Shown here piece after piece: positions 11,277-44,638 of a stretch of DNA of 64,000 bases. The translations under genes were made by a program, and so were the position numbers. The DNA is from an uncultured Candidatus Micrarchaeota archaeon (lineage in GTDB: Archaea > Micrarchaeota > Micrarchaeia > Micrarchaeales > Micrarchaeaceae): positions 201,546 through 265,545 of the forward strand of contig CAVUGN010000002.1 of NCBI GenBank assembly GCA_963741095.1, given 5' to 3'. Position 1 is the first letter of the stretch. Each line of letters begins with the position of its first letter. The notes under the pieces are model-generated. The model made no database searches, was not told where the DNA came from, and saw only the letters and a program-made list of their open reading frames with translations.

Positions 11277-11289
11277 GGATTAGTCCGGT

Positions 11290-12266: not shown

Positions 12267-12270
12267 TAAC

Positions 12271-12462: not shown

Positions 12463-12466
12463 CGGG

Positions 12467-15187: not shown

Positions 15188-15201
15188 CCAATCAATCCTG
15201 A

Positions 15202-16125: not shown

Positions 16126-16161
16126 GAACTTACCTGAACCTAAAAATGCAAAAAGAGGGCA

Positions 16162-16701: not shown

Positions 16702-16876
16702 AATAAACACTAAAGTAGTAGTATACTATTTTGCCAACAAAGATATAAAAAGATGCCGTAAACCAATGGGGCAGATGCTGCCGACATCGTTGCGGTGCGA
16801 TACTGAGTGAGAAATTCTCTGTTGCGGGACTACTCTATTTTTATAGTTTCTCAGTGTCAACATATCAGGTGGTTGC

Positions 16877-17914
16877 ATGGATATGTTGGAAAGCGCTCTG
16901 AGCAATGAAAATTCTTCGGAAGACATGTTCAAAGCAAGAATCATGGTGTGCGGCGCAGGCGGCGGAGGCTCAAACACCATAAACAGGCTCAGCAAGATGG
17001 GCGTCATCGGGGCAAGCCTGATGGCAGTCAACACCGATGCAAAGCACCTCAACGGCATGGATCCATCTATCAAGCGCATTCTCATCGGCGGCGCACTCAC
17101 GCGCGGCCTGGGAGCAGGCGGATTCCCCGAGATAGGGGCAAAGGCCGCAGAGTATTCGAGATCTGAAATAGACAGCGCACTGAGAGGCTGCAATCTTCTC
17201 TTCCTCACCGCGGGCATGGGTGGCGGAACGGGCACCGGAGCGGCGCCGATAATCGCGGACGCCGCAAAGAAGAACGGTGCGATAGTCATAGGCATAATAA
17301 CATTCCCGTTCAGGCTGGAGCGTGTAAGATTGGAAGTGGCAAAGAAGGGAATAGCCGAGCTCAGCAAGAACTGCGACACCCTGATAGTCATAGACAACCA
17401 GAGGCTCGCCGACGTCTATCCGAACCTCGCATTGGAACAGGCGTTCAAGGTTGCGGACGAAGTCGCGTCAAGGGCGGTGAAGGGCATAGCCGAGACGATA
17501 AATACGCCAAGCTTCATAAACATAGACTTCGCCGACATCAGAAGCATAATGAACAGGGGCGGAATAGCCATGATAAGCGTCGGGGAGGGCAAGGGCTCGA
17601 ACAAGGTCAACGACGTCGTCAGGGAAACGCTCAGCAACAAGCTTCTTGACGTGAATTATGAAGGCACAAAAGGCATTCTGCTGCACATACGCGGCGGAGA
17701 GGACCTCACACTGGGAGAGGCTAACGAGATAGCAGGCAGGCTGACAGAACAGGCCGCGCCGAACGCAAACGTCATATGGGGCGCAAGAATAGATCCCGCA
17801 TACAACGGCAGGGTAGAAGTGATAGCGATATTCACCGGCGTCTCAAGCTCGCAGATACTCTCCGGAAAGACCGCCGAGAACGAGGCACAAGATTTCGGGC
17901 TCGGCTCGATGTGA
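16877..17914 (+). CDS. ftsZ: Cell division protein FtsZ (paralogue A)
   Basis: GAGGGGSN, NTD, GMGGGTGTG signature and T7 loop INIDFAD. Confidence 0.96.
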   Translation: MDMLESALSNENSSEDMFKARIMVCGAGGGGSNTINRLSKMGVIGASLMAVNTDAKHLNGMDPSIKRILIGGALTRGLGAGGFPEIGAKAAEYSRSEIDSALRGCNLLFLTAGMGGGTGTGAAPIIADAAKKNGAIVIGIITFPFRLERVRLEVAKKGIAELSKNCDTLIVIDNQRLADVYPNLALEQAFKVADEVASRAVKGIAETINTPSFINIDFADIRSIMNRGGIAMISVGEGKGSNKVNDVVRETLSNKLLDVNYEGTKGILLHIRGGEDLTLGEANEIAGRLTEQAAPNANVIWGARIDPAYNGRVEVIAIFTGVSSSQILSGKTAENEAQDFGLGSM

Positions 17915-17933
17915 GCGCGGGAATTATCGTCAA

Positions 17934-18776
17934 CTAAAATGCCGTACGCCCAAGCAAATCCCTCACGCTGTCCGATTTGGCGTGATCAATCGCTTTCTTG
18001 CCTAGATTATCAGTCATATTGATATCGGCTCCGTTGCGCATCAACATCTCAACAAGCTCCTTTCTATCAGCGTTTGCAGCCATCATCAGCGCCGTGAAGT
18101 TGCTATAAGTCTTCGCATTAACATCGGCTCCGGCGCGTATCAATGGCTCTACAGCCTCTCCTCTGGCTTCATGCGAGCCGTACATGATCGCCGTCCTTCC
18201 CCAAACATCCTTCATATCAACGTCAGCTCCTCTGCCTATCAATATCTCGGCAACCCTCTTGCGATCATAATAAGCGGCCAACATCAGCGCCGTCAATCCC
18301 TTCTTATTCTTCAAATCAAGATCGGCCCCGTGGCTTATTAACGCTTTGACGCCCTCTTCATTATCTTCAGACGTGGCCTTCATCAGCGCCGTATCCCCAT
18401 CCTTATCACCAAGGTTTGCATCTGCCCCGCCATTCAGCAGTATCCTCAGGGTCTCGATGTATTTTCTGTTCATCGAAACCCACATCAGCGCAGTCATATC
18501 CTCGGGGTCCCTCACATTCACGTTCGCCCCTTTTTGTATCAGTTCACCAACCCTGTCGTTATCTATGTTGGGCAGCATCACTTCCCTGATCAGTTCTCTT
18601 CCCAGCTTCTTTGCTTCATCCTCGCTGACGACTAGTTTCCCCGCGCACTCCCTTAACCTCGCGATTTTATTGTCGATTGCTGCGCCTGATGGCCCTTCGG
18701 TCTGCCTGACGAACGCCTTGATCTCCTCCACCCTCTGCGGAGTCATCCTTCCGTCCCTGTTCGCGCCGGTTTCCAT
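17934..18776 (-). CDS. Ankyrin-repeat protein
   Basis: About 6 repeats of G.TALM.A......V..LI..GAD.N after a ~60-aa non-repeat N-terminus. Confidence 0.93.
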   Translation of the reverse strand: METGANRDGRMTPQRVEEIKAFVRQTEGPSGAAIDNKIARLRECAGKLVVSEDEAKKLGRELIREVMLPNIDNDRVGELIQKGANVNVRDPEDMTALMWVSMNRKYIETLRILLNGGADANLGDKDGDTALMKATSEDNEEGVKALISHGADLDLKNKKGLTALMLAAYYDRKRVAEILIGRGADVDMKDVWGRTAIMYGSHEARGEAVEPLIRAGADVNAKTYSNFTALMMAANADRKELVEMLMRNGADINMTDNLGKKAIDHAKSDSVRDLLGRTAF

Positions 18777-18777
18777 C

Positions 18778-19737
18778 TCACATACCTTTCATTGCGTCCT
18801 TGAGCATCTTTTTTATGGCTTTATCATCCGTCTGGTTTATGGTCCTCCTACCCGAACGGTCCTTTAACGTCGCATCCGCACCGTTTTTCAACAACACCGC
18901 GACAACCTTGCTATGCTCATGAGCAGCTGCCCACATCAGTGCGGTCATGCCTGTGCGATCACGAATATCTATATCCGCTTGGCTGTTTAGCAACATCTCC
19001 GCAACCTCACAATGACCTTCTTTTGCCGCCCGTATCAATGCAGTCTTGTGCGTATCATCCTGCATGTCCACATTTGCGCCGCCGCGTATCAATCTCTCGA
19101 CAACCGCCTTTTTGCCCTGTGATGACGCCCACATAAGTGCGGTGCCGCCCGCTCTATCCCTCAATTCTGTATCTGCGCCATCGCCTATCAGAATATCAAC
19201 AACGTCCACGTGGCCGTTTTGCGAAGCCCACATCATTGCCGTCATCCCCGTCATATCCCTCAAATCCGGATTACTGGGTGGTTCCAACATCTCTACAATA
19301 TCTGTGAATCCACGCGCGGAGGCGTGCATTAGCGCCGTCATCCTCTTGTTGTCCTCCGCGTTCACATCCATCAAGCGTGGAACGAACAGCAGCAGGAGCT
19401 CCACGACATCCTTGTGGTTGTTGCACGAAGCCTTCATCAGCGCCGTCTGGCCCGCTTTATCCTTCGCATTCAAGTCGGCCCCTTTGTTTATCAGCTTCTT
19501 GATCTTATCGATGTCTATAATCTTCTTTTTTGCCTCGTTGATGAGCTGCATCCCCCATGTCTGCTCGTTTTCTTCCTTTGCAATAGACTCCCTTAATCTA
19601 ATTTTCATGCCCTCGATCTGTTTGCCGATCGGATGACCAGGAGTTTCATCTATCCCTCTCAGATAAGCCCTTAGCGCGTCCACTCTCGCTACGGTTATCC
19701 TTCCGTCGTTTGCCGCGCTCTCAGATTTCCCGACCAT
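18778..19737 (-). CDS. Ankyrin-repeat protein (tandem paralogue)
   Basis: About 7 ankyrin repeats; 1-nt gap to the downstream paralogue. Confidence 0.93.
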   Translation of the reverse strand: MVGKSESAANDGRITVARVDALRAYLRGIDETPGHPIGKQIEGMKIRLRESIAKEENEQTWGMQLINEAKKKIIDIDKIKKLINKGADLNAKDKAGQTALMKASCNNHKDVVELLLLFVPRLMDVNAEDNKRMTALMHASARGFTDIVEMLEPPSNPDLRDMTGMTAMMWASQNGHVDVVDILIGDGADTELRDRAGGTALMWASSQGKKAVVERLIRGGANVDMQDDTHKTALIRAAKEGHCEVAEMLLNSQADIDIRDRTGMTALMWAAAHEHSKVVAVLLKNGADATLKDRSGRRTINQTDDKAIKKMLKDAMKGM

Positions 19738-29466: not shown

Positions 29467-30732
29467 ATGGTCGAAGAACTAAACCCTTTCAAAATAGCAC
29501 AGAGCCAGTTGGACGAAGCTGCAGGCATAATGGGCCTCGACAAACAGGCCCACGCGATACTCAGGGAGCCGATGAGAACCGTGGTCGCAAACATACCCGT
29601 CAAGATGAGAAACGGAACCACAAAGACCTTCACCGGCTTCCGCGTCATGTACAACAACGCAAGAGGGCCGGGGAAGGGGGGAATCCGTTTTCACCCGCAG
29701 GAGAATCTCGACACGGTCAAAGCACTCTCCGCATGGATGACCTGGAAATGTTCGCTTGCAAACATACCGTTCGGCGGTGCGAAGGGCGGAGTCATCTGCG
29801 ACACCAAGACAATGAACCCGCAGGAACTCGAGAACCTTTCAAGAGCGTATCTTCGCGCATTCAAAAACGTCATCGGCCCGAACATAGACGTTCCTGCACC
29901 TGATGTCTACACCACGCCGCAGATAATGGCGTGGATGATGGACGAGTACAGCCGAATGGCTGGACAAGATGAATTCGGAATGATAACCGGGAAGCCTCTA
30001 GAAATCTGGGGCTCTGAAGGCCGGTTCGATTCTACCGCATTGGGTGGCATGTATGTTCTCAGGGAAGCAGCAAAGCTGAAGAAGATGAACCTGAAGAATG
30101 CAAAAGTTGTGGTGCAAGGGTTCGGCAACGCCGGAACCTTCGCCTTCGACCTTTCGACGAAGATGTTCGGCGCGAAGGTCGTTGCGATAAGCGACTCGAC
30201 CGGCGGGGTGTACTCGGAAAAGGGTCTCGATTACGCCAAGCTGAAAAAAGCAAAGGATGAGACTGGCAGCGTTCAGGGCTACAAAGGAGCGCAGAGCGTG
30301 ACCAACGAGGAACTTCTGGAGCTCGATGCGGATGTGCTGATACCTGCGGCTATAGAGAACCAGATAACACAGAAGAACGCGAGCAAGATAAACGCAAAAA
30401 TACTACTGGAGCTTGCGAACGGCCCGGTCACCCCTTCAGCAGATGAGATACTGATCCAAAATGGCGTTTTCGACCTGCCTGATTTCCTGGTAAATTCCGG
30501 GGGTGTGATAGTCTCATACTTCGAGTGGGCGCAGAACAGGGGCGGATACTACTGGCGCGAGGACGAAGTCTACAACAAGCTGGACACGATAATAACGAAG
30601 TCCTTCAACGACATGATCCGGACGCAGAAGGATTACGCGGGCAAGGGCAAAAAGATAAGCCCGAGGATGGCTGCCTACATAATCGCAGTGGGCAGAGTCG
30701 CCAGCGCGATGAAGGTCAGAGGCTGGTACTGA
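29467..30732 (+). CDS. gdhA: Glutamate dehydrogenase (Glu/Leu/Phe/Val family)
   Basis: GPGKGGIRF, PFGGAKGG, DVPAPD, QGFGNAG and NSGGVIVSYFEW. Confidence 0.96.
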   Translation: MVEELNPFKIAQSQLDEAAGIMGLDKQAHAILREPMRTVVANIPVKMRNGTTKTFTGFRVMYNNARGPGKGGIRFHPQENLDTVKALSAWMTWKCSLANIPFGGAKGGVICDTKTMNPQELENLSRAYLRAFKNVIGPNIDVPAPDVYTTPQIMAWMMDEYSRMAGQDEFGMITGKPLEIWGSEGRFDSTALGGMYVLREAAKLKKMNLKNAKVVVQGFGNAGTFAFDLSTKMFGAKVVAISDSTGGVYSEKGLDYAKLKKAKDETGSVQGYKGAQSVTNEELLELDADVLIPAAIENQITQKNASKINAKILLELANGPVTPSADEILIQNGVFDLPDFLVNSGGVIVSYFEWAQNRGGYYWREDEVYNKLDTIITKSFNDMIRTQKDYAGKGKKISPRMAAYIIAVGRVASAMKVRGWY

Positions 30733-31300
30733 CACCCTTCTTGGAAAGGAACTTTTTCACACTGCGCATCAGCTTGGCCGATGTGGTGCGGTCCGTAAAC
30801 AGTATGCGGAACCATCCGGTGTAAGTTTCGGGATTCTTGCTGACATCATCCTTCAGGAATTCCATGGTGGCCCACTTCCAGTCCTTCGCCTCTTCTGGGC
30901 TCGGTTCGGGCTCGCCATCGTACATGCCGAACATCACGTGGTCGAACTCCCATTCGGTCAGGCCGTTGCCGACCGCGGTCTTGTAAATGAACGAAAATAC
31001 CTCTTCCATCTCGCAGTCGAAGCCCATCTCCTGCTCCAATCGGCGATGCGCTGCATCTACGGCGCTCTCGCCCTTGAACGGGTGCGAGCAGCAGGTGTTG
31101 GTCCATAAACCCTGAGAATGGTACTTGGTTTCTGCCCTCTGCTGGAGCATGGTCTGGCCTTCTTTGTTGAATACGAATACGGATATCGCCCGGTGCAGAG
31201 TGCCGCCGTTCTGGTGCGCCTTCATTTTTTCCTCCAGGCCAACCTCGTTGTCGTGATCGTCGACGAGAAGCACCATCTGCTTGACGTTCTCCTTTGCCAT
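30716..31300 (-). CDS. idi: Isopentenyl-diphosphate delta-isomerase, type 1 (Nudix)
   Basis: LHRAISVF, LQQRA..K, WTNTCCSHP and E.E.DHV. Confidence 0.95.
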   Translation of the reverse strand: MAKENVKQMVLLVDDHDNEVGLEEKMKAHQNGGTLHRAISVFVFNKEGQTMLQQRAETKYHSQGLWTNTCCSHPFKGESAVDAAHRRLEQEMGFDCEMEEVFSFIYKTAVGNGLTEWEFDHVMFGMYDGEPEPSPEEAKDWKWATMEFLKDDVSKNPETYTGWFRILFTDRTTSAKLMRSVKKFLSKKGVSTSL

Positions 31301-31349
31301 CCTAGCACCAATTTACACTGGGCAGGCAAAAACTAAAAAGCTGCGCAAG

Positions 31350-31371
31350 TACAACGACGCAAGTCGTTGTA
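31350..31371. promoter_or_regulatory. Perfect 9-bp inverted repeat in the divergent idi / transfer-operon intergenic region
   Basis: TACAACGAC-GCAA-GTCGTTGTA. Confidence 0.55.
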
Positions 31372-31495
31372 TCCATGCGCTACTCCACGCAGTAATGACT
31401 AATTAATTGCATAGATACGAATATTTAAATATTTATCTGAGTAAAATAGTTATACTAAAGTAAAAGATGAAGTAGCTGATTACATAAAGAATGTT

Positions 31496-31867
31496 TTGTG
31501 GGTGAGTGAATTGGGATATGGATACAAAATCGCAAAGTACGTAACGATACCTCTGATGGCATTGGCGCTCTCAACCAGGAGCGTCACTGCGGCGTCCGCG
31601 CCCGTGGTGTCTGAGATAAACAGCATAAAGTTGGTACTCATGCAGGTTGGACCGGCACTGAGCGCAGTGCTCTTTGTGCTTGCCGGCATATTCTATGCTA
31701 TAGGCCAGATGCTGCCGCCCGACAAAAAGGCAAATTTCCATACCGCGGCAGTCAACATAATAATTGGCGCTGTGGTTGTCGGTGCGCTGAGCGTTGCGTC
31801 GACTTCGCTTGCCATTGCTTCTACGCATTTGATCGGGAACCTGACCGCAATCAATTCAAGCATCTAA
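31496..31867 (+). CDS. VirB2/TrbC/CedA1-like pilin
   Basis: Leader peptide, then two hydrophobic helices joined by a short basic loop (LAGIFYAIGQMLPPDKKANFHTAAVNIIIG). Start may be the TTG at 31511. Confidence 0.65.
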   Translation: MWVSELGYGYKIAKYVTIPLMALALSTRSVTAASAPVVSEINSIKLVLMQVGPALSAVLFVLAGIFYAIGQMLPPDKKANFHTAAVNIIIGAVVVGALSVASTSLAIASTHLIGNLTAINSSI

Positions 31868-31879
31868 CAAGGTTTCTAC

Positions 31880-32929
31880 ATGAGCGGCGTTGGCATCTAT
31901 GGCGTGTCCGTAGGCATAATAGCAATAATGCTTGCGGTCTCGGGCATTGTTCTTGGCCTAGGATATGCGCTTGACGACAAAAGGCTGAAGGAATTCGGGC
32001 GCGACGAGCTGCTCCAATCCCTGATAAACGGCGCGATAGTCGGCTTCCTCTTCGTGGCATTCGGCAGTTCCGGATTCTTCACGCTTCTGGTGAACTCGCT
32101 CGCGAGCAGCCAATCCGTTGTGGCCTCGTGCCCTGCGTCAATCAATGCAAACTACGCCATATGCTTCGCCTACAACTACCTCGTCGGCGTCTCCCCGGTC
32201 CGCATAAACGGGGCAAGCTACCCCTCCCTGATGGATGTGTCTTTGCCGTTGCTCGTTGGCGTATCCGCCTCTTACACCGCGCTTAGCCTCATAGGATCCA
32301 TGCAATTCAGTATCGGGGTGTTCAGCATAAGCCTGACGAGTGCGCTTTCGCCGCTTCTGACGCAACTCAGCTACCTGATGAACGTGCTTACCTTCGCAAT
32401 AACCGGCATAGAGGTGCAGGCAATACTGCTCGAGTTCATAGCAATAACCGCGGTGCCCGTGCTGTTGCCCGTGGGCATCGCGCTCAGGGCGCTGTACCTC
32501 ACACGGAAGCTCGGCGGCGCGATGATAGCGATCACCATAGGGCTTTTCGGCGTCTTCCCACTGACGTACCTGCTCAACGCCGGGCTCACAAACAGCTATT
32601 TCAACACCACAAGCGCGTCCACCACCGATTCGCTTATCTCAAGCCTTGGCACAATGAATGACAACCTTATGAACACAGTGTCCAGCGCAAGCACCTCGCA
32701 GAACAGCACGGTGCGCAACGGCATGCTAAATTCATTGTCGGGCACCATAAGCGGGCTGATGGGCGGCGCCGAGACAATCATAAAGGAACTCCTAAACGTT
32801 ATCGCCTTCCTGATAATCGACATCTTCTTCCTCCCGGTTTTCAGCCTTATACTCACCGCGATATCTATCAGGGAATTCGCAAGGATACTCGGCTCAGAGG
32901 TGTCCTTCGGGAAACTGTTCATATACTAG
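31880..32929 (+). CDS. Polytopic membrane protein, CedA/VirB6-like
   Basis: Multiple TM helices, N-terminal LGYAL....LKEFG.DEL.Q, and PVGIALRAL..TRKLGGAMIA..IG...VFP, which recalls the CedA/VirB6 conserved segment. Lies between the pilin and the ATPase. Confidence 0.6.
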   Translation: MSGVGIYGVSVGIIAIMLAVSGIVLGLGYALDDKRLKEFGRDELLQSLINGAIVGFLFVAFGSSGFFTLLVNSLASSQSVVASCPASINANYAICFAYNYLVGVSPVRINGASYPSLMDVSLPLLVGVSASYTALSLIGSMQFSIGVFSISLTSALSPLLTQLSYLMNVLTFAITGIEVQAILLEFIAITAVPVLLPVGIALRALYLTRKLGGAMIAITIGLFGVFPLTYLLNAGLTNSYFNTTSASTTDSLISSLGTMNDNLMNTVSSASTSQNSTVRNGMLNSLSGTISGLMGGAETIIKELLNVIAFLIIDIFFLPVFSLILTAISIREFARILGSEVSFGKLFIY

Positions 32930-32936
32930 TGGTCGC

Positions 32937-33659
32937 TTGAACGATGTGATCTTTTATGGAATGCTTGCCGCGGTGCTGATCCTATCATTGTCAAGCCTCC
33001 TGAGCCTTAACGTCTTCCTGATCGCACTGAGCCTGTTGGCCGTGCTTACGTTGATCCTGACGCAAAAACTTTGGTTCGTGGTCGAGGCCTTGGTGTTCAA
33101 GCACACAAGCCTCATACAAGTGCTTGGCGATCAGCAACTGAGCGGAGACCGTTCGGCCGCCATAAGGCGGGCGAAGGGCGGGTTTGTTGCAACAACAATG
33201 GCCCTCCTCAGGGGCGATGCCCGGGAGAATGTGGACCGGGAAAAGATAGAGGCGATAATAGCGCACCTGAACTACCCATTCCGGTTTGTGCTTGACGTAA
33301 AACGGCTTGACGCAAACAAACTACTCGATAAGCTCCAAACCAAAAGAAGCCTCAAGGAGATAGCCCTTTCAAAAATGAGCGCAAACGGTCCGAGCGCCGC
33401 AAAAATGAGCGCGATCAAGCGTGAGATAGAAGAGATAGAGCGGGACATAAGCAACATAAGCGCGAGCACGCCCGTGAGCCTTGCAAGGTACATAGCCACC
33501 AGCGCAAAATCCGAAAGCCGATTTGCAGCAGAAGAGCATGCAAAATCCCAGATAAGGGCACTTGCAAGCGAATTCGGCACGCTGCTCAACTCGGAGGCTC
33601 AAATATTGGCTGGCACCGACCTGCTGGAATGCCTTGAAATCGATTCGATGGTCCGATGA
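32937..33659 (+). CDS. Membrane-anchored protein with coiled coil, coupled to the downstream ATPase
   Basis: Two N-terminal TM helices, soluble domain with heptad segment, ATGA overlap with the next gene. Confidence 0.7.
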   Translation: MNDVIFYGMLAAVLILSLSSLLSLNVFLIALSLLAVLTLILTQKLWFVVEALVFKHTSLIQVLGDQQLSGDRSAAIRRAKGGFVATTMALLRGDARENVDREKIEAIIAHLNYPFRFVLDVKRLDANKLLDKLQTKRSLKEIALSKMSANGPSAAKMSAIKREIEEIERDISNISASTPVSLARYIATSAKSESRFAAEEHAKSQIRALASEFGTLLNSEAQILAGTDLLECLEIDSMVR

Positions 33660-35038
33660 GCGCAAACTTCATATCCAATTCGGGCGTTGTCGCGGGATGC
33701 GTGTGCATGTCTGCAATGTCTGAGCCGCAAGCAGAGCAAAGCGAAGCTGGGGTGTACCTGGGCAACACAAAGATCTATCGCACGCCCTTCTATCTGGACA
33801 CAACAAAATTGGTAAACCCCCACGTGGTGGTGCTCGGGATGTCCGGCTCCGGAAAGACCTACCTCCTGAAAAGCATCGTGGCAAGAAGCCGGATGTACAA
33901 TTCAACAAGAGTTCTTGTGGTGGATTGGAACGGGGAATACAAGGAGCTTGTGTCCTTCCTGGGCGGCAAGACGCTACGGCTGGGTGCGGATTCGCGCATG
34001 AACATGTTTGAACTATTCGATGTCGGAAAAGACAAAGGCGCCAGGGCCGTACTCGATGCAATGGACAAGATAGTCAGATTCAACCGAAAAGAGCGCGCAA
34101 TCGTATACCGGTTTATGCTCGATTCAACAAAAAGCGCGAATGCGGCTCTGAACCTAAAAATGCTGATAAAGCAGCTCAATGTCGATCCACAGAACACCTA
34201 TGCCGATTCAAAGCTTAGGCAGCTTATGGGAAATCCCCTTTTTGCCGACCACACCAATTTCGACATCAAGAGCATTCTGGACGGGGTTACCAGCATAGAC
34301 CTCTCCGGTTTAAAGGATGACGGGCAAAGGGGCGAGGTGGCCAGGGCCGTACTCGGCATACTGATCAGGGCGATGCATCGTTCAGAAATGACCAGCTCTG
34401 CCAGGACCCTCATAGTGCTCGACGAGGGGTGGCGCCTGCTTGGAGATTCGGAAGAAGTTTCAACCCTATTCAGGGAGGGACGAAAGTACGGGTTTGGCCT
34501 TGCAATTGCAACCCAACTGGCAAAGGATGTGAACAACGAAGCGATGGCAAACGCGGCTTTTATCGCCATTTTCAAGCTCCAGAGCGGCGAGGATTATGAC
34601 CTATTGACCGAGGCTGGAATCATATCCGGAAACGACATCCCGCTATTGTCTGGATTGGACGTGGGCAAATGCATGATCCGCCTGGCGAAGAAAGAATCTT
34701 CAGAAGATGCAAGAAAATTTCTCATGGGCAGGATAGAAGGTGTGCACACTGAAATTTACAATCTTGTGTGTGAGCGTATGGACATCTCTGTTTCAGGAAG
34801 AAAATTCCTCGAGGAGACGGAAAGGCTGACTGCAAACATCGAAACAAAAAGCAGGATAATCGATTTTGCGAACGAGAATGGGCGAAACATCGATCTAACC
34901 GCTTTGGTAAAGTTAACGCTCCGATTGGGCATGAAACGGCCCGAAATAGTGCCGTACTTGAAGGCGCTGGGGGTGGACGACCTATCAATAATCAAATCGT
35001 GTGAGGCAGCCGATTTTGCGGCTCTAGAATTCATGTGA
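33656..35038 (+). CDS. HerA/VirB4/CedB-family ATPase
   Basis: NPHVVVLGMSGSGKT, VDWNGEY, LIVLDEGW, REGRKYG and IATQ. Confidence 0.9.
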   Translation: MSANFISNSGVVAGCVCMSAMSEPQAEQSEAGVYLGNTKIYRTPFYLDTTKLVNPHVVVLGMSGSGKTYLLKSIVARSRMYNSTRVLVVDWNGEYKELVSFLGGKTLRLGADSRMNMFELFDVGKDKGARAVLDAMDKIVRFNRKERAIVYRFMLDSTKSANAALNLKMLIKQLNVDPQNTYADSKLRQLMGNPLFADHTNFDIKSILDGVTSIDLSGLKDDGQRGEVARAVLGILIRAMHRSEMTSSARTLIVLDEGWRLLGDSEEVSTLFREGRKYGFGLAIATQLAKDVNNEAMANAAFIAIFKLQSGEDYDLLTEAGIISGNDIPLLSGLDVGKCMIRLAKKESSEDARKFLMGRIEGVHTEIYNLVCERMDISVSGRKFLEETERLTANIETKSRIIDFANENGRNIDLTALVKLTLRLGMKRPEIVPYLKALGVDDLSIIKSCEAADFAALEFM

Positions 35039-35042
35039 TGCC

Positions 35043-35723
35043 GTGGAAAATGACAATACGCTGATATGCGGCGCTTTTCATGCTCGTGCAGAGCCGCGCA
35101 GCTCCCTCATTGACATACGAAACGCTATGAAAGGCATGCCGGAAGCGAAACACACCTCAACGGGCACAAGAATGTTATACTCCATCGGAGTGGCTGGCGA
35201 CCGAAATGCACCAGAAGCGATGCTAGAACTGGCGCCCAAAGGGATAACCTTTACCTTCTATTTCAAAGAACCAAATCATCGTGTGTATAAACACAACCTG
35301 CTTCGATTCCTTTCGATCCTGGCGTACTTGAAAGACGAATACTCCGTGGACATCAGCGAAATCTACGGTTATGTGATAGAAGCACTGAGATACGAAGATT
35401 ACACGTTGACACAAGAAGCCGCCAGCATCGTCTACCAACCGAACGAACGCATGGACGTGCTTAACCGTGTGAACGTTTCGCTATCCCACGAGCTTTCATT
35501 GAAAAACGAGCGCATCAGAACGATGGACAAGCAGCTTGCTGCATACTTCTCTTTTAGCAAAAAGCTGATCCAAAAACTTTCAGTAAGCTGCAGCAGCGCG
35601 TCCCCCAACACAAATGAAATATTGAAAATTGCCGGAATAGATGAGGGTCTCGCAAAAGATATTCTACTGTTGATCGATGGAAACATCGGTGGCGACAAAA
35701 AAGATGGCGATAAACATGATTAA
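35043..35723 (+). CDS. Hypothetical protein with C-terminal coiled coil
   Basis: 226-aa ORF filling the operon, 4 nt after the ATPase stop. Confidence 0.7.
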   Translation: MENDNTLICGAFHARAEPRSSLIDIRNAMKGMPEAKHTSTGTRMLYSIGVAGDRNAPEAMLELAPKGITFTFYFKEPNHRVYKHNLLRFLSILAYLKDEYSVDISEIYGYVIEALRYEDYTLTQEAASIVYQPNERMDVLNRVNVSLSHELSLKNERIRTMDKQLAAYFSFSKKLIQKLSVSCSSASPNTNEILKIAGIDEGLAKDILLLIDGNIGGDKKDGDKHD

Positions 35724-36420
35724 TCTTGACTTCATGCTCTATGCTGCAAGTCCAAACGCGTACAATGGCAGTTATTACGCGCTACTGATACCAATCGGTG
35801 CAATAATCTTCTTATTAATCAAGGAGATGTCCGATTTTGATTCGGTAAACAAAGGAATATCAATTCGAACCTGTTGCGAAGCAGAACACGCCGAAGTGAT
35901 CAAAGTCGACAAGAAACTCTTCCAAGCCGTTCTGAATCGCACCAAAAGACTAGACGATGGTACGCTTGCCGTTAAAGATATGGCCGTGAACCTTGGCACA
36001 TTCGCCAACACGATGTCTGCAGAAATAGGGGCGACCTCCCGTACAGATCCGATCCGATACACAAAACTGATAAAAAACTGCAACAAGGTCGTACATGGAA
36101 ACCTAATCTGCTTTTCGGATACGCCCTACCTGGAAGCCAATGCAAGATCATACTATGACTGGGCAATCAAAAACAGCACGATAAAAATAAAAAAGAGATC
36201 GAACGCCAAAAATTTCCTAGATTCGTGCGGATTTGTATGCTATGCTGAACTTTGCCAGGATTCGATCAGACCCGGGGCAAAAACAAAAGATGTGAAGATA
36301 GGCGTCCTAAACAAAGCGGAGTTAGGCGCCATGTCCTGTTTAGAAAGCTTATACGACAAGGGTAGTGCATTGCTGTTGTTGCAGAAACTAAACAAAACAG
36401 TGCAGGTGATTAACTGCTGA
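35677..36420 (+). CDS. Hypothetical single-TM protein
   Basis: YYALLIPIGAIIFLLI helix followed by a soluble domain; start possibly the ATG at 35716. Confidence 0.65.
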   Translation: METSVATKKMAINMINLDFMLYAASPNAYNGSYYALLIPIGAIIFLLIKEMSDFDSVNKGISIRTCCEAEHAEVIKVDKKLFQAVLNRTKRLDDGTLAVKDMAVNLGTFANTMSAEIGATSRTDPIRYTKLIKNCNKVVHGNLICFSDTPYLEANARSYYDWAIKNSTIKIKKRSNAKNFLDSCGFVCYAELCQDSIRPGAKTKDVKIGVLNKAELGAMSCLESLYDKGSALLLLQKLNKTVQVINC

Positions 36421-36602
36421 ACTTTGCGAAATATTTTGCTAAGATTGGGCTTTCCATTGCCCTGTTGCTGTTTAATGCTGGTGCCATATCCCTTCTATCC
36501 GGCCATACCCTGGGAGTCAAGCCCCTCAACTCGTTAGCCACGAACATTCTCCTCGGAGCAACAATACTTACTGCATTTTCAACGCTTGCCTTTATTCTGT
36601 GA
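36414..36602 (+). CDS. Small 2-TM protein (62 aa) with apparent CTG start, absent from the ORF track
   Basis: The open frame LLNFAKYFAKIGLSIALLLFNAGAISLLSGHTLGVKPLNSLATNILLGATILTAFSTLAFIL fills the gap between its neighbours; strong AGGTGAT SD just before it. Confidence 0.55.
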   Translation: MLNFAKYFAKIGLSIALLLFNAGAISLLSGHTLGVKPLNSLATNILLGATILTAFSTLAFIL

Positions 36603-36606
36603 TGGT

Positions 36607-36897
36607 ATGCTAAAAAATGTGAAATCATTCTATGCAAAAAACAACGCATACGAGATGTTATTCGCATCGTTCACTGCAGGCATAACTGCGTTTTTCATGA
36701 TTTTTGGCATCACGAAACTTGCAGGATTCCAACCAACCCCCTTCATCGGATATTTTGCCTCAATTGTTTTGCTTCTTGTCATCCTTTCCACCGCATCAGC
36801 GTCAACAAGAAAAGCGTTTGTCATACCAAGAGCATCCAAAGTCCTGCTGCTCGCCACGCTTTCAATATCCCTCATAATATTCCACGCGATAATATGA
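36607..36897 (+). CDS. Small 3-TM membrane protein
   Basis: Three hydrophobic segments; ATG at 36607; ATGA overlap with the next ATPase. Confidence 0.65.
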   Translation: MLKNVKSFYAKNNAYEMLFASFTAGITAFFMIFGITKLAGFQPTPFIGYFASIVLLLVILSTASASTRKAFVIPRASKVLLLATLSISLIIFHAII

Positions 36898-39179
36898 CAA
36901 ACAAACTGCTTTTTTACCAATTTTCCACAATGCCTTCAAAAGGTATTGAAAAGGACAAGTTTTTTGCTGGAATTGGCAAAAAAGAGTTCATCCTGGTTTA
37001 CGACACAACAAACCGCACTACTCTCATGGGCATCCCAGAAGATATAGCAGAAGATAAGATCGAAGAACTTCAGAAAATAATTCCTGGCATGACCATGGAA
37101 AAGAGCAACAACCCTATCGGGGAATCGCAACTACTTGACGCAATATCTTTTTATAAAAAGCCGAAAGAGCAAATAACTTATGATGTGCCTGACCCTCACG
37201 ATATCCACGACGTTTTTGAGCTTGCACGCGGTGATTTTCTCGCGGTAGCATTCATACCTGTTAGCGATAAAGAACTAGACCAAACAAAAAACTATCTTGA
37301 GAAAACGCTAAGCAGAAGGAACGTGAAGGAAACCTACTCCGTAATAAAGAATTCGCTTCAATCACGTGTAAACGTTTCATCACAGCGGGACATGTTTATT
37401 GAATCAGAAGAGGCCGTAATGCTCAACGACGTGCTAGAGTCGATTAACAATGCAGTACTAACCAAAAGCCCAATCTATAAACCTTTTTTTATAGTGCCCT
37501 ATGGTCCAAGCAAAGTCCGCGAATTCATAAGTACGAGGTTCCTTATACTTGATACCTACGAAAGCAATGATTCATTAGAGTTGCTATTGTCGAAGCTGAT
37601 TAACAAGAAGTCTTTCCCTCTCGGATTAGAGCATCTCAAACCCCTACTTGATCCATACGGCGCTCAGAAGCTTAGCTATGCCCTACCAACAATGATGCCT
37701 ACCCCAAGAAGCGGGATAGCGGTGGGCACATTCATGAAAGACGGGGCTGTAGATACCCCTCTCGATATCAAGATAGAACCATCCACGATAAATCTCGGTT
37801 TTATCATAACTGGTTTACCTGGCTCCGGCAAAACAACCGAAGCCATGGCAATAATCGATACTCTATTAAATGAAAAAAACAGGCCGCGGGTGGTCGTAAT
37901 AACTCCAACCACTGAATGGGATAAATTTGCTATTTCACATGGCATGTACCTGATCAAACTATACGATGACAAAACTCCAATAAATCTTTTCAGAAAGCCA
38001 CCGTGCATAAACCGGGAAAAATTCTACGAGAGTCTTGCAACGGTGCTTTCTAGTGCGTCTAATGCTGGTCCATACCAAAACCCTATGGAAAAATGTATGC
38101 TTAATGCTTTTAGGAAAATTTATGCGAAAGAAGAGGAACCCGACCCAGTAGCAGTGTATGAAGAAATAGAAAATTCAATAATAGAATTGCATGCAAAAAG
38201 GACCAATACGGGTGTGAAATACACAAAACATGGGGAAAACATACGATCCGCACTCGAAAATCTAAGAAGCATACTATGCAGGCCCGAATTTTCTGTGCAG
38301 TCTGGCATAAAAATCGAAGACCTATTGAGTAGTGGAGTTATCTACAACATATCGAGCGCAAGTGGTACAACAAGAGCGTACCTGTATGCACTCCTCCTGA
38401 ATCAGATTTATGCAATAACCTCTAGTCTCGATGCAAAAGGCGACGGCGAATTAAGGTTGCTGGTCTGTCTCGAAGAAGCCCAGACGATGTTCAGTGACAA
38501 GGACTCTGCCGCAGTAGTAGACATAAAACAGCGAATACAGGATTTCAGAAGGCAGGGGGTGGGGCTGATGATATTAACACACAACGTCAATGACATAGAT
38601 TCTGGAGTAAGACGATTATGCCAATTGAAACTCTACCTAAAACAAGCATCTGATGTTGCAGTAGTTGCATCAAAGGATCTTGTATTTACGTACGCTAATG
38701 AAGATGATGTCACATTGAAATTAAAACTGCTTGATTCTAGAATCGGAGCATTCAGTTACATTACAAAGTCGGGCTTAGAAAAAATGACGCAGGACACAAT
38801 ATTCATCCGGACTAAAGAGTACAACAACAAGAGTGATAAATCCTATGAAAATCCATTAGATTTGCTATTAAAAAATAATCTATTTAAATTATCCTGCAAA
38901 CTAGATGTGATTGTGCATATAGCTGTAGATAGAACTAATGAGAATGCTTGCCGAATTGCGGCGTCAATGTGCACTTTAAAATTTAGATATCTGGGTGAAG
39001 TGATAGCAGAGCATTCAATCGAAATGAACCGGGATATAATACAACCCTTGTTTGAGGGTAAAACATACAAAATCCAGATATTAGATAAAAAAGGAAAAAC
39101 CATGAAAGAATTTGATCTAAAAGTCAAAGATAAAATATTCATCACAGTATCCGAAGACCGGATTAATATAAACAACTGA
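36894..39179 (+). CDS. Second HerA/VirB4/VirD4-superfamily ATPase (761 aa)
   Basis: ITGLPGSGKT Walker A, LVCLEEAQ Walker B variant, DFRRQG and ILTH. Confidence 0.82.
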   Translation: MTNKLLFYQFSTMPSKGIEKDKFFAGIGKKEFILVYDTTNRTTLMGIPEDIAEDKIEELQKIIPGMTMEKSNNPIGESQLLDAISFYKKPKEQITYDVPDPHDIHDVFELARGDFLAVAFIPVSDKELDQTKNYLEKTLSRRNVKETYSVIKNSLQSRVNVSSQRDMFIESEEAVMLNDVLESINNAVLTKSPIYKPFFIVPYGPSKVREFISTRFLILDTYESNDSLELLLSKLINKKSFPLGLEHLKPLLDPYGAQKLSYALPTMMPTPRSGIAVGTFMKDGAVDTPLDIKIEPSTINLGFIITGLPGSGKTTEAMAIIDTLLNEKNRPRVVVITPTTEWDKFAISHGMYLIKLYDDKTPINLFRKPPCINREKFYESLATVLSSASNAGPYQNPMEKCMLNAFRKIYAKEEEPDPVAVYEEIENSIIELHAKRTNTGVKYTKHGENIRSALENLRSILCRPEFSVQSGIKIEDLLSSGVIYNISSASGTTRAYLYALLLNQIYAITSSLDAKGDGELRLLVCLEEAQTMFSDKDSAAVVDIKQRIQDFRRQGVGLMILTHNVNDIDSGVRRLCQLKLYLKQASDVAVVASKDLVFTYANEDDVTLKLKLLDSRIGAFSYITKSGLEKMTQDTIFIRTKEYNNKSDKSYENPLDLLLKNNLFKLSCKLDVIVHIAVDRTNENACRIAASMCTLKFRYLGEVIAEHSIEMNRDIIQPLFEGKTYKIQILDKKGKTMKEFDLKVKDKIFITVSEDRININN

Positions 39180-39235
39180 TGCAACCCCATAAATTTGCAA
39201 GAGTATTTATATTTATCAGTTGATATATTAATCAG

Positions 39236-39535
39236 TTGATTAATATGTACCCAAAAACAACCGTAATCTTCAAACCCAGATTGATTGATCGGTCGCCACG
39301 TTTAGAGACAATATTGATGATAGAATCGATGCTTTACTTACACCGAAGTGATAAAACTATAACTCAAATTTGGAGATTGTTGCCAAAGAAAGTTATGTGG
39401 ACCACCTTCACAACAGTTTTAAAATACCTGGAACATTCTGGTAAAATCTATGTTGAAAAAGACAAAACCATAACATGGCTCTGGGATCCAAAAGGCGTGG
39501 AAAAATTCAAGAAAAGTAAGTTAGTGATAAAATAA
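39236..39535 (+). CDS. Winged-HTH protein, putative antitoxin
   Basis: SPRLETILMIE...QIWRLLPKKVMW.TF..VL.YLE.SGKI; stop overlaps the following toxin-like frame. Confidence 0.7.
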   Translation: MINMYPKTTVIFKPRLIDRSPRLETILMIESMLYLHRSDKTITQIWRLLPKKVMWTTFTTVLKYLEHSGKIYVEKDKTITWLWDPKGVEKFKKSKLVIK

Positions 39536-39882
39536 ACGACAATAGAATAAAAAAAGTTAGTTTTGCAGATGAAAAACTTCTTAATGCATTTAATAAACTC
39601 AAAACTGGCAAATTCGAAGACAAAAAATTAGCGTCCGAAATAAACGACGTTATCAATAAACTCAAAGAAGACCCTCTTTGTGGTATTGAAATAGCAAAAC
39701 TATTGTGGCCTATAAAATATATACGAGAATATGATATAAAAAATCTGAAAAAGTATAATCTACGGAATGGGTGGGGATTAATGTATACCGTTAAAGAAGA
39801 TCCGGTAGAAATTATATCCATAATACTAGAATGGCTGGATCACAAAAATTATGAAAGACGATTTGGTTATAAAAGTCATTAA
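39532..39882 (+). pseudogene. RelE/ParE-like toxin frame (116 codons) with ATA start; pseudogene or non-canonical start
   Basis: Manual translation INDNRIKKVSFADEKLLNAFNKLKTGKFEDKKLASEINDVINKLKEDPLCGIEIAKLLWPIKYIREYDIKNLKKYNLRNGWGLMYTVKEDPVEIISIILEWLDHKNYERRFGYKSH resembles the archaeal RelE-like family as I recall it. Confidence 0.65.
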
Positions 39883-39898
39883 CCAATAACAATCAAAA

Positions 39899-41335
39899 TC
39901 AGCCTTTCGCGACGCCCATCGGGACTAATTTAGCAACGATATCAGAGATCTTCGCGCCTTCTATACTGTTTACCACATCATCCACGTTCTTGTAAGCCCA
40001 CTCAGCCTCTTCACTGACGAGCCTGATGTTCCTGACACGCAATTCTATACCTTTGCTCTTCAGATCGTCCAATATCCTCGATACAGGTATCTCCCTCTGT
40101 GCCTGGTGCCTTGACATAACCCTTCCCGAGCCATGGCATGACGAGCCGAACGTCTCCTTCATCGCCTCGTCCCTGCCCGCAAGGACGTAGCTTGCGGTGC
40201 CCATGCTGCCCGGTATGATCACCGGCTGGCCATACTGCCTGTAATCCGCTGAAATCTCATTCCTTCCGGGCCCGAACGCCCTTGTCGCCCCCTTCCTGTG
40301 CACATAAAGCTTCATGCGCTTGCCATCGACGTCGTGCTCCTCCAACTTAACTATGTTGTGCGTAACGTCATACACCAGCTCCATGCCGAGCGCGTCGGCA
40401 CTCTTGCCGAACACCTCAGCGAAGCTCTTCCTTATCGAGTTCGTCATTATCTGCCTGTTCACGAATGCGAAATTGACCGCGGATTTCATCGCTTTGAGAT
40501 AATCGTCCGCCTCCTTCGTGTTTGCGTAAGCGTAAACCAACTCTGGATCTGGCGGTATTATGTTATTCTTCGCCTGATAATCCGCAAATATCCGTAGGTA
40601 GTCGCTGCAGACCTGATGGCCGAAGCCTCTGGAGCCGCTGTGAACGAGTATGACCACATTGCCCTTCTCGAGTCCGAACGCCTTCGCGTCCCTTTCGTTT
40701 AGTACGCTATCGACCTTCTGGACCTCAAGGAAATGATTTCCTGCGCCAAGCGTGCCGAGCTCATGGGTCCCTCTCTTCGCTGCAAAGGGACTGACCTTGC
40801 TTATGTCTGCGCCTGGCATACAGCCACGCTCCTCAATGTGCTCAACATCCTCCTTGAAGCCGAATCCTTTGTCTATTATGTACTGTACTCCTTCGCTGCA
40901 GACCTTCTCGAGATCATTCTTCGTGAAACCAAGGTTTATCCTGCTGCCCACTCCGCTAGGTATGTTCTTGAACAGCGTGTCCATGAGCTGCGAAAGCTTC
41001 GGCTTTACCTCCTCCACTTTCAAATCGGTTCTTATCAGCCTTACCCCGCAGTTTATGTCGTAGCCGACGACTCCAGGCGATATTATGCCGTTCTCCGCAT
41101 CGAAAGCCGCAACCCCCCCAACCGGAAAGCCGTAGCCCTCGTGTGCGTCCGGCATCAGGAGCATGTGCTTAACTATCGATGGCAGCGAAGCCGCGTTCAT
41201 CGCCTGCTTGAGCGTCCTGTCCTTGCCTATGGTGTTGGCTACTTTTTCGTTTGCGTATATGTGAACGGGCACCTTCATGCCCGGCTGCGCTTCGGTGCCA
41301 ACCTCCCACAAGAAGTCGCTTATCTTGTTTGCCAT
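39899..41335 (-). CDS. rtcB: RNA-splicing ligase RtcB
   Basis: MPDAHEGYGFPVGG, GYDINCGVR, GNHFLE, HSGSRG, HRKGATR and SCHGSGR. Confidence 0.97.
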   Translation of the reverse strand: MANKISDFLWEVGTEAQPGMKVPVHIYANEKVANTIGKDRTLKQAMNAASLPSIVKHMLLMPDAHEGYGFPVGGVAAFDAENGIISPGVVGYDINCGVRLIRTDLKVEEVKPKLSQLMDTLFKNIPSGVGSRINLGFTKNDLEKVCSEGVQYIIDKGFGFKEDVEHIEERGCMPGADISKVSPFAAKRGTHELGTLGAGNHFLEVQKVDSVLNERDAKAFGLEKGNVVILVHSGSRGFGHQVCSDYLRIFADYQAKNNIIPPDPELVYAYANTKEADDYLKAMKSAVNFAFVNRQIMTNSIRKSFAEVFGKSADALGMELVYDVTHNIVKLEEHDVDGKRMKLYVHRKGATRAFGPGRNEISADYRQYGQPVIIPGSMGTASYVLAGRDEAMKETFGSSCHGSGRVMSRHQAQREIPVSRILDDLKSKGIELRVRNIRLVSEEAEWAYKNVDDVVNSIEGAKISDIVAKLVPMGVAKG

Positions 41336-44308: not shown

Positions 44309-44388
44309 TTAATTAGCCTTCATAAACAATATCTATAAAACTATCTCCGCTCCGCGGAACACAAAAAGAGTCGTAACTAAGCGACAGA

Positions 44389-44462
44389 CGCCCCTGCCGG
44401 GATTTGAACCCGGATCACAGGCTCCGGAAGCCCGCGTTCTATCCAAGTTATACCACAAGGGC
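44389..44462 (-). tRNA. tRNA-Arg(CCG)
   Basis: Cloverleaf with GCCCTTG/CAGGGGC acceptor stem, CGGGC-TTCCGGA-GCCTG anticodon arm and TTCAAAT T loop; no intron, CCA not encoded. Confidence 0.95.
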
Positions 44463-44496
44463 AGAAGACCGAAGACACCATCTGACAAGAATGTTA

Positions 44497-44570
44497 CGCC
44501 CTTGTCGGGATTTGAACCCGAATCACAGGCTCCGCAAGCCCGTGTTCTATCCAAGTTATACTACAAGGGC
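44497..44570 (-). tRNA. tRNA-Arg(GCG)
   Basis: Cloverleaf with GCCCTTG/CAAGGGC acceptor stem, CGGGC-TTGCGGA-GCCTG anticodon arm and TTCAAAT T loop. Confidence 0.95.
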
Positions 44571-44638
44571 ACAAAGATTTTAATATGCCTTATGCTTTAT
44601 ACACTTTACACATTAATGCTTTAAAGTCCGCTGATTTG

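Follow-up and report, generated by a model that had tools for sequence, protein, structure and literature searches.

The window analysed here is a 64,000-nucleotide stretch of the genome of an uncultured Candidatus Micrarchaeota archaeon (G000:C2:201546-265545; genome 1.08 Mb, 94% complete). The listing of its open reading frames (ORFs) contains nine plus-strand ORFs arranged as one packed block at positions 31496-39179, flanked by idi (30716-31300, minus strand) and rtcB (39899-41335, minus strand). An earlier reading of this DNA, hereafter the original prediction, had described nine co-oriented genes abutting or overlapping one another between idi and rtcB, and the listing matches that description. 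We name the genes g1 to g8 (including g7a and g7b) and argue that this operon probably encodes a machine derived from a type IV secretion system (T4SS), with a predicted VirB2-type pilin (g1) and two predicted ATPases of the VirB4/CedB/HerA clade (g4 and g8). The nine genes are as follows.

g1, 31496-31867, plus strand, 123 aa: putative pilin precursor
g2, 31880-32929, plus strand, 349 aa: polytopic membrane protein, candidate channel
g3, 32937-33659, plus strand, 240 aa: membrane protein with a coiled-coil-rich part, candidate adaptor of g4
g4, 33656-35038, plus strand, 460 aa: predicted ATPase
g5, 35043-35723, plus strand, 226 aa: soluble protein
g6, 35677-36420, plus strand, 247 aa: fast-evolving protein
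g7a, 36414-36602 with the revised start (listed ORF 36465-36602, 45 aa), plus strand, 62 aa as revised: two-helix membrane hairpin
g7b, 36586-36897 (likely ATG start 36607), plus strand, 103 aa as listed: small membrane protein
g8, 36894-39179, plus strand, 761 aa: predicted ATPase, the larger of the two

The spacing between neighbouring genes ranges from −47 to +44 nt, i.e. from overlaps to gaps, with a 4-base overlap at g3/g4 and likewise at g7b/g8. A simple hydropathy screen places two transmembrane segments in mature g1, seven in g2, two in g3 (both N-terminal), one in g6 and three in g7b; the same screen finds none in g4, g5 or g8.

The g1 protein starts with a basic and hydrophobic leader that ends in ...VTAAS and is followed by two hydrophobic helices (from the alignment and hydropathy) at residues 51-69 and 83-101, which are connected by the loop GQMLPPDKKANFHT. 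This interhelix loop (GQ-LPPDKKANFHT) is nearly invariant, and there are 25 invariant columns in the orthologue alignment. The Pfam family T4SS_pilin matches 13 of the 14 g1 orthologues at E ≤ 0.01 (best E 7e-6), and TrbC/VirB2 matches seven of the 14 at the same threshold (best E 4e-6); a PDB profile search with g1 returned only hydrophobic noise. The start codon is uncertain (TTG 31496, GTG 31502 or TTG 31511). The first gene had been proposed to encode a pilin, and both the family matches and the leader with its two-helix topology fit that proposal. From its sequence, we accept g1 as a putative VirB2/TrbC-type pilin precursor with a Sec-type leader, which resembles the processed pilins (TedC and bacterial VirB2) more than it does the unprocessed CedA1.

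The best NCBIfam matches of g4 are, in order, CedB (1.4e-23), the CD1110 VirB4-like family (8.5e-18), TraC (3.3e-16), VirB4_CagE (1.2e-15) and CedD (1.7e-15), with HerA ranked after CedD. The alignment to the CedB model (NF041017) is restricted to positions 239-522 of 590, the C-terminal ATPase part, and scores 83.4 bits against a cut-off of 700; g4 is therefore not a CedB equivalog. Pfam finds DUF87 (2.3e-14) and AAA_10 (8.4e-10) in g4, and the PDB profile search gives HerA (PDB entry 8wiv, 2.1e-19) as the best match and the VirB4 C-terminal domain (PDB entry 4ag5) at 1.6e-11. A tblastn search against plasmids with g4 returned 277 records, of which 168 are conjugative; the top rows that carry an annotation are labelled VirB4-like or TraC, with one exception labelled DUF5934. 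The protein is soluble and consists of an ATPase domain and a conserved C-terminal module of ∼90 aa. Its Walker A (GMSGSGKT), Walker B (LDEGW) and REGRKYG motifs are invariant in the orthologue alignment. The g4 family has a long form (449-465 aa), to which the g4 of the window belongs, and a short form (351-385 aa; eight of the 14 aligned orthologues) in which ∼100 residues after the Walker A region are absent.

The AlphaFold2 model of g8 is confident, with a predicted local distance difference test (pLDDT) score of 89.2, and has an N-terminal α/β domain of ∼275 aa and a C-terminal beta-rich domain of ∼100 aa. Its best Foldseek matches are the TrwK/VirB4 chains of R388 (8rtd_O, 3.8e-14, ∼850 columns; 7o42), with E values of 3.8e-14 to 1.7e-13 over ∼800-950 columns, and Sulfolobus HerA (4d2i) is nearly level at 4.5e-13. 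The query-normalized template-modelling score (TM-score) is ∼0.3 to both TrwK/VirB4 and HerA, so that it is mainly the ATPase domain that superposes; the target-normalized TM-score to the isolated VirB4 C-terminal domain 4ag5 is 0.68. The two ATPases of the operon are homologous to each other (hhalign probability 97.6, E 3.8e-12, 314 columns). Among 39 g8 orthologues Pfam finds DUF87 in 11, HerA_C in eight and AAA_10 in five, and the Walker A, EE and arginine residues are invariant; Walker A, Walker B and arginine-finger residues are thus invariant in both ATPases. The plasmid search by tblastn gave no match for g8. On sequence and model, g4 and g8 are predicted to be VirB4/CedB/HerA-clade ATPases with intact catalytic motifs; NCBIfam, PDB profile, Foldseek and hhalign results agree in this, as the original prediction of two HerA/VirB4 ATPases had it. 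For the g8 orthologues inspected, the public annotation is ‘hypothetical protein’, ‘DUF87 domain-containing protein’, ‘ATP-binding protein’ or ‘Cdc6-like AAA superfamily ATPase’, and with such generic labels the system is invisible to routine annotation.

The second gene had been assigned as a CedA/VirB6-like protein. The g2 protein is polytopic, with three predicted helices of 50-66 residues, and its AlphaFold2 model (pLDDT 75) has three very long helices. Among 350,542 chains searched with Foldseek, the first and second ranks are both TrwI/VirB6 of R388 (8rt9_F and 8rtd_L). That part of the assignment finds an echo in the two best folds, whereas the matches fall short of significance and sequence profiles find nothing; the model ranking is suggestive, rather than evidence, of g2 as a candidate VirB6/CedA-like channel and pilus base. 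The g2 family is large: its profile matches 2433 representative clusters at E ≤ 1e-3, of which 75 remain at E ≤ 1e-30. Pfam finds no family in ten distant or long members, and ten cluster names of the family are either ‘hypothetical protein’ or blank, with one organism label being Micrarchaeota. Four long proteins of 1118-1457 aa (P0129, P0131, P0134 and P0139) carry the g2-like domain at the N-terminus, and Pfam finds no family in P0129, P0131 or P0134.

The remaining five genes encode proteins of more obscure ancestry. The g3 protein has two N-terminal transmembrane helices followed by a coiled-coil-rich soluble part, and its alignment contains 32 sequences with a mean identity of 36%. PDB profiles returned only coiled-coil noise for g3, and no Pfam family recurs in more than two of the 32 orthologues. 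In the ESM Atlas g3 falls with its own Microcaldota clusters (0.92-0.96). A relationship to clusters with TraC-like (23-32% of members) or PrgI (14%) labels was considered and rejected, the Atlas scores being weak (0.77-0.79) and the Pfam scan of the 32 orthologues giving no confirmation. We regard g3 as a candidate membrane adaptor of g4. The g5 protein is soluble and conserved in position (38 loci by jackhmmer, mean identity 21%), with no match in Pfam, NCBIfam, PHROGs, PDB or the ESM Atlas. The fast-evolving g6 was found by jackhmmer in 29 loci, also with a mean identity of 21%, and has no match in Pfam, NCBIfam, PDB or PHROGs. A PHROGs search with the nine ORFs returned no family, and hhalign gave a probability of ≤2% for each of the pairs g3-g8, g5-g8, g7a-g1 and g1-g2.

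Two gene starts were revised. The g7a product is a two-helix membrane hairpin with a basic loop, and the 45-aa version starting at TTG 36465 falls short of the length of its relatives. The reading frame can be extended 5′ to CTG 36414, which lies directly 3′ of an in-frame TAA and overlaps the stop of g6; from there it reads LLNFAKYFAKIG..., an N-terminus that can be aligned with the MLxxxxY... beginning of related proteins. The start is thus most likely to be CTG 36414, giving 62 aa. Relatives of g7b, a small protein with three transmembrane segments whose stop overlaps the g8 start, begin with the motif MLxNVKxFYxK, and its start is therefore most likely to be ATG 36607. A crude ORF and hydropathy screen found small membrane ORFs at the g7a and at the g7b position in 34 of 48 g8 loci each. 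By its position and size alone, g7b could be a VirB3 analogue; a complex prediction of g8 with g7b scored 0.00 against a mark of 0.32, which in a run without controls is uninformative either way.

A scan with the g8 alignment, using one genome per species, returned 41 loci: 37 titled Micrarchaeota, Micrarchaeia or Micrarchaeaceae (two of them titled only ‘uncultured archaeon’), two Marsarchaeota and two weak bacterial matches. These titles bear out the earlier view of the organism as a DPANN archaeon of the Micrarchaeota type. In a blastp comparison of 13 loci from two families of the same order, g1-g4 are present in the same order in all 13, g5 in 12 and g8 in 11; for every gene found in them, the two sister-family loci show the greatest divergence or close to it. 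With jackhmmer, the order g1-g2-g3-g4-g5...g8 is colinear in 31 of 48 g8-bearing loci (29 once two same-contig duplicates are subtracted), so that the gene order proves to be kept in relatives, and the block to be no chance arrangement, in the synteny survey that the original prediction had called for. Ten of the 17 noncolinear loci have less than 6 kb upstream of g8, and L033, L035, L038, L043, L046, L053 and L066 have at least 8 kb upstream of g8 without g1-g4. Since loci are found both split and joined, the operon comprises two modules, g1-g4 and g5-g8, which are usually fused and sometimes separate. The identity matrices of g2, g3, g5 and g8 correlate with r values of 0.66-0.81, and none of 2000 permutations was as high. 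This agreement shows a shared history of the genes and is by itself no proof of vertical descent. As an aside, L044 (10129-11570) and L048 (16581-18082) carry, 8-10 kb downstream of g8, an extra pair of g5-like and g4-like genes that are encoded on the other strand.

The g2 profile was used to survey 301 genomes of the phylum, 266 of which have a match at E ≤ 1e-5. Taking E ≤ 1e-40 as the mark of a strong orthologue, 58 of the 75 genomes of the family of the window (G000 included) and 46 of the 54 genomes of the sister family have one; subtracting the unpublished genomes G054 and G202 gives 57 of 74 and 45 of 53. In other families the matches are weaker (1e-10 to 1e-65) and may be to orthologues or to paralogues, and three families have none or few (0/7, 0/5 and 2/15). 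The genomes without a strong match include ones that are 95-97% complete in eight contigs and have congeners with the operon, which means that the operon is common but dispensable, or has been lost and regained. In five genomes of the family without a strong g2 match, rtcB is present in all five and idi in three, always on different contigs, and an empty insertion site could be defined in none of the five.

The weak g2-profile matches in the genome of the window all lie on contig C1, beside a paralogue of g4, and mark a second locus.

Second locus (L077), contig C1 ∼1400-19257, minus strand, outside the window: paralogous gene cluster

Its order is five g2-like proteins with six to eight transmembrane segments, a 353-aa and a 277-aa protein, a g3-like protein (6958-7794; E 9e-12 to g3) and a g4-like ATPase of 507 aa (5395-6918; E 9e-38 to g4, NCBIfam CedD 8e-22). 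The g2, g3, g4 order is thus kept, with further membrane proteins present. An ORF of 500-550 aa of the type of this second ATPase was matched in 41 of 41 genomes by hand count, some of which are without the operon studied here, and the second locus may be the more universal system. The repeated adjacency of g3-like and g4-like genes is the best evidence that g3 and g4 might act as a pair; it also lends indirect backing to the proposal that CedB is split here into a transmembrane part and an ATPase part, since the g3-like gene again stands directly before the g4-like one. Upstream of the second locus, at L077:17514-18714, there are tandem paralogues of 178 and 182 aa that are 71% identical to each other and have one N-terminal and two C-terminal predicted transmembrane segments; these may be pilin-like, and the g1 profile does not match them.

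The block is an inherited chromosomal operon and not a fresh mobile element. There is no integrase on its contig, the single tyrosine recombinase of the genome being on contig C9, and the Pfam families Relaxase and TrwC, the two that were searched, have no match in this 94%-complete genome; the relaxase test is a weak one because archaeal conjugative elements may use unknown relaxases. No direct repeat brackets the block, the sole candidate being a 30-nt pair of 73% identity that lies inside gdh and g10. The nearest tRNAs are at 44387-44571, ∼5 kb from the operon, and Pfam and NCBIfam recognize no replication gene in the block. The searches for repeats, recombinases, Relaxase and TrwC thus agree with what had been noted at the outset, that integrase, att repeat and relaxase are lacking. 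Logan contigs from four soil DNA runs, all belonging to the same study, span 30660-31470, 38520-39243 and 39401-40095 without differences, and with its junctions bridged the operon is not an obvious assembly chimera; the runs are no independent support, as they are possibly from the source sample.

The other features at the ends of the operon are as follows.

AT-rich intergenic leader, 31401-31495, plus strand: putative operon promoter, from reading the sequence
AT-rich tail, 39180-39898, plus strand, guanine-plus-cytosine (GC) content 0.31-0.35: adjoins the conserved operon and is not part of it
g9, 39236-39535, 99 aa: orphan ORF found in two loci, no family match
g10, 39703-39882, 59 aa: orphan ORF found in one locus, no family match

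An AT-rich spacer of 195 nt lies 5′ of g1 and has a TATA-like box, TTTAAATA, at 31424-31431, from which it may serve as the promoter of the operon; the GC content across 31200-31799 is 0.445-0.450. A promoter and terminator scan gave counts equal to those in shuffled sequences, and its consensus is bacterial and so uninformative for an archaeon. Shortly before g9, at ∼39215-39243, there are two copies of the word ATCAGTTGAT.

The nearest precedents are the archaeal Ced and Ted systems, DNA importers derived from VirB2, VirB6 and VirB4 (PMC9905601); statements on published work here and below refer to the excerpts of the cited papers that were available. Ted, from Thermoproteales, comprises the TedC pilin, the TedA channel and the TedB ATPase. 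It is likewise a chromosomal, relaxase-less archaeal T4SS derivative. Its VirB2-like pilin has an N-terminal signal sequence that is apparently removed, its ATPase is VirB4-like and its polytopic protein resembles VirB6; extra conserved genes, a HerA-like helicase included, are also found nearby (PMC9905601). The Micrarchaeota operon differs in holding two VirB4/HerA-clade ATPases and five conserved genes without known relatives, and the host of Ted belongs to the Thermoproteota rather than to DPANN; this comparison is by description only. The Ced system of Sulfolobales (CedA, CedA1/A2, CedB, CedD and CedE) is alike in that CedB is the best NCBIfam match of g4, and in its two paralogous ATPases, small two-helix membrane proteins, polytopic channel and relaxase-less import of DNA (PMC9905601, PMC11868833). 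Both of its ATPases, CedB and CedD, are needed for import (PMC11868833). The original prediction had held that a second ATPase goes beyond Ced, a view that is outdated now that CedD is reported as the second essential Ced ATPase (PMC11868833).

There are nevertheless several differences from Ced: g4 is without the transmembrane and N-terminal parts of CedB, the genes of the Micrarchaeota system are all in one operon, and the leader of g1 looks cleavable, unlike the Ced pilins, which are reported to be unprocessed (PMC9905601). The N-terminus of CedA is reported to be homologous to CedA1 (PMC9905601), and a homology of this kind is not seen between g2 and g1: hhalign of the two profiles gave a probability of 0.45%, which is only a weak negative because the profiles are shallow (effective number of sequences 2.5). 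With g4 at 83 bits against 700 and the CedA-N-terminus/CedA1 homology unseen, the earlier description of the first four genes as a Ced-type core does not hold in the strict sense. We read the operon as working like Ced or Ted, yet not as a Ced equivalog; it would be a third archaeal lineage of domesticated T4SS. The openly accessible main texts searched do not describe an operon of VirB2/VirB4 type from Micrarchaeota; the excerpts of PMC8975820, PMC12892359, PMC4158269, PMC5498576, PMC13705601 and 10.1101/2024.05.20.594898 do not describe this operon, and those of PMC9905601 have no mention of DPANN or Micrarchaeota. What comes nearest is a speculation in the Mia14 paper, in which genomic islands rich in membrane proteins are called ‘likely conjugative elements’ (PMC5498576), along with the nanohaloarchaeal VirB4/TraG-like domains (PMC10266531) and the relaxase-less T4SS of Patescibacteria (PMC12102498).

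Two other kinds of T4SS-related machinery in small, host-dependent or DPANN cells are worth comparing. The chromosomal T4SS of Patescibacteria (the Candidate Phyla Radiation) are found in ultra-small host-dependent cells, with VirB4 in most genomes and VirB2-like pilins nearby, and most clusters are without a relaxase and are proposed to have been co-opted beyond conjugation (PMC12102498). Unlike the present system, these are bacterial and nested in the FATA type of mating-pair formation (MPF-FATA) in VirB4 phylogeny (PMC12102498), while g8 is without a plasmid match. The giant ‘SPEARE’ proteins of nanohaloarchaea have VirB4/TraG-like ATPase domains in a DPANN lineage and are proposed to carry out host-aimed secretion (PMC10266531). 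In them the ATPase is fused to a giant surface protein with immunoglobulin repeats, and the excerpts describe no pilin or VirB6-like gene (PMC10266531), whereas the system here is a compact multi-gene operon. Separately, the window contains an ORF of 2400 aa at 64-7266 on the plus strand; nanohaloarchaea offer an example of giant surface proteins with a link to VirB4-like ATPases (PMC10266531).

The closest folds for both g8 and g2 come from the R388 VirB/Trw inner-membrane complex (TrwK/VirB4, TrwI/VirB6, TrwM/VirB3 and VirB2). In bacterial T4SS the gene for VirB3 directly precedes that for VirB4, and the operon similarly has a small membrane protein directly before the large ATPase (g7b-g8). 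Unlike in R388, no VirB5, VirB7, VirB8, VirB9, VirB10, VirB11, VirD4 or relaxase is recognizable, and the likeness of g7b to VirB3 is without sequence support. Homologues of VirB3 and VirB8 are stated to be absent in archaea (PMC11868833).

What the analysis shows is the gene content and its conservation, the families of the pilin and the ATPases, their intact catalytic motifs and the lack of mobile-element hallmarks. From these parts a working model can be drawn, in which the assembly of a pilus, g2 as the channel, the tethering by g3, g7a and g7b, and the cargo and its direction are inferred. The g1 product would be exported by Sec, its leader would be cut and the two-helix mature pilin would be stored in the membrane. 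The g2 protein would form the membrane channel and the base of the pilus. The soluble ATPase g4 would be anchored at the membrane by g3, and the larger VirB4-like ATPase g8 likewise by g7a together with g7b; g4 and g8 would then drive the extraction of pilin, the growth of the pilus and the passage of macromolecules through the channel. DNA taken up from another cell is the cargo that we rank first, because the sole archaeal functional precedents, Ced and Ted, import DNA; by this analogy it is a possible, still tentative, assignment. The full statement, that the block is a chromosomally inherited, relaxase-less T4SS descendant that is widespread in Micrarchaeota and most likely imports DNA, we hold to have an even chance of being correct.

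Several results weigh against that statement. The g1 of the window itself matches T4SS_pilin with E 1.7e-4 and 22.1 bits, which is below the curated cut-off of 26.6, and the NCBIfam scores of g4 are all far below theirs. The matches of g2 to TrwI/VirB6 have E values of 0.5 and 1.2, probabilities of 0.44 and 0.23 and TM-scores of 0.27-0.34 and are not significant; as g2 has no Pfam, NCBIfam or PDB profile match, its VirB6 assignment is without sequence-profile support. HerA structures score as well as VirB4 for both g4 and g8, and the ATPases alone are therefore no proof of a role in secretion. No relatives of g3, g5, g6, g7a or g7b are detectable in the databases searched, and Pfam and NCBIfam recognize no DNA-processing gene in the operon. 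On the side of distribution, a strong g2 match is absent in 17 of 75 and eight of 54 genomes of the two families, and g2 is on another contig in four of the five tested genomes in which g8 stands apart from g1-g4. The composition is also uneven, with a GC content of 0.55 in g2, 0.50 in g4, 0.40 in g8 and 0.31 at 39.2-39.8 kb, compared with a genome mean of 0.52; it is possible that the distal operon was swapped in by allelic replacement from a relative of lower GC content.

The first alternative is that the same machine is a host-directed conduit, either a pilus of the archaeon itself or a docking or receiving channel for a tube of the host, passing nucleotides, lipids, proteins or host DNA. 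The genome size of 1.08 Mb is typical of host-dependent DPANN. In electron cryo-tomograms of the Micrarchaeote ARM-1, tubes with an outer diameter of 6.7 nm and an inner diameter of 4.4 nm reach the cytoplasm, and the envelope has a 21-nm docking barrel; the components are stated to be unknown (10.1101/2024.05.20.594898). The authors of the ARM-1 work attribute the tubes to the host. A parallel would be the T4SS of Patescibacteria, most clusters of which are without a relaxase and which Saccharimonadia were found to need in order to grow as epibionts (PMC12102498), and nanohaloarchaeal VirB4/TraG-like domains have been proposed to serve secretion into hosts (PMC10266531). The operon is, however, missing from several near-complete genomes of the family, which is hard to square with an organ essential for feeding; an essential role is more readily ascribed to the second locus, whose type of ATPase was matched in 41 of 41 genomes, and there is no effector-like or adhesin gene in the operon. 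A host conduit seems unlikely, if well short of negligible. We consider it more doubtful still that this machinery, as a third and independent archaeal lineage with two paralogous versions in each genome, underlies the long-observed tubes, the ‘filamentous connections’ and the docking structures between these nano-sized archaea and their hosts, as a conduit for feeding or DNA uptake that evolved in parallel with the T4SS on which the epibiotic growth of Patescibacteria depends.

The other explanations fare worse. That the block is an integrated conjugative element or its decayed remnant, and not owned by the host, would account for the fall in GC content towards the tail and for the two small orphan ORFs there, and it has in its favour that presence and absence vary within genera and that islands in the Mia14 paper are speculated to be ‘likely conjugative elements’ (PMC5498576). 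It is very improbable given that integrase, flanking repeat, adjacent tRNA, recognizable replication gene and relaxase of the two families tested are all wanting, that 31 of 48 loci, from at least two families, keep the genes colinear, that the identity matrices of the genes agree, that in most relatives the GC profile of the operon is flat and the same as the surroundings, and that idi is near the operon in 11 loci. We similarly give little credence to a pilus for adhesion or biofilm formation only, with the ATPases serving assembly and nothing being translocated, despite the pilin being the sole firmly assigned part other than the ATPases and despite the thin filaments on ARM-1 cells (10.1101/2024.05.20.594898). 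Such a pilus would also agree with Pfam and NCBIfam recognizing no DNA-handling or coupling protein, yet two distinct ATPases and five further conserved genes exceed the known needs of pilus assembly. To our knowledge, every VirB2/VirB4 system that has been studied moves a substrate. Ced and Ted are among these (PMC9905601). A HerA-type DNA translocase module with membrane partners, acting in defence, repair or chromosome handling, would make the pilin match fortuitous. It draws on the best PDB profiles for g4 being HerA, several of them from anti-phage complexes, on HerA nearly tying with VirB4 for g8 and on the modest scores of both pilin families. This we judge the most improbable of all, as g1 matches two independent pilin families (13 and seven of 14 orthologues) and has the right topology, the known HerA partners NurA, Sir2, DUF4297 or others are found in none of ten ORFs at E ≤ 1 in Pfam or NCBIfam, each ATPase gene is translationally coupled to a membrane-protein gene (g3 or g7b), membrane proteins make up five of the nine genes, and the nearest plasmid relatives of g4 are VirB4 and TraC of conjugative plasmids.

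If the reading as a T4SS descendant is correct, it would bear on how such machines are distributed in archaea. The domesticated T4SS described from archaea to date are Ced, in Sulfolobales, and Ted, in Thermoproteales, and a widespread operon in Micrarchaeota would extend them to DPANN. DPANN biology turns on contact with other cells. The operon brings with it five conserved families without known relatives that accompany VirB2/VirB4-type genes, one of them in the position of VirB3. Together, the operon and the second locus would make a short list of candidates for the tubes between Micrarchaeota and their hosts and for the docking barrel (10.1101/2024.05.20.594898).

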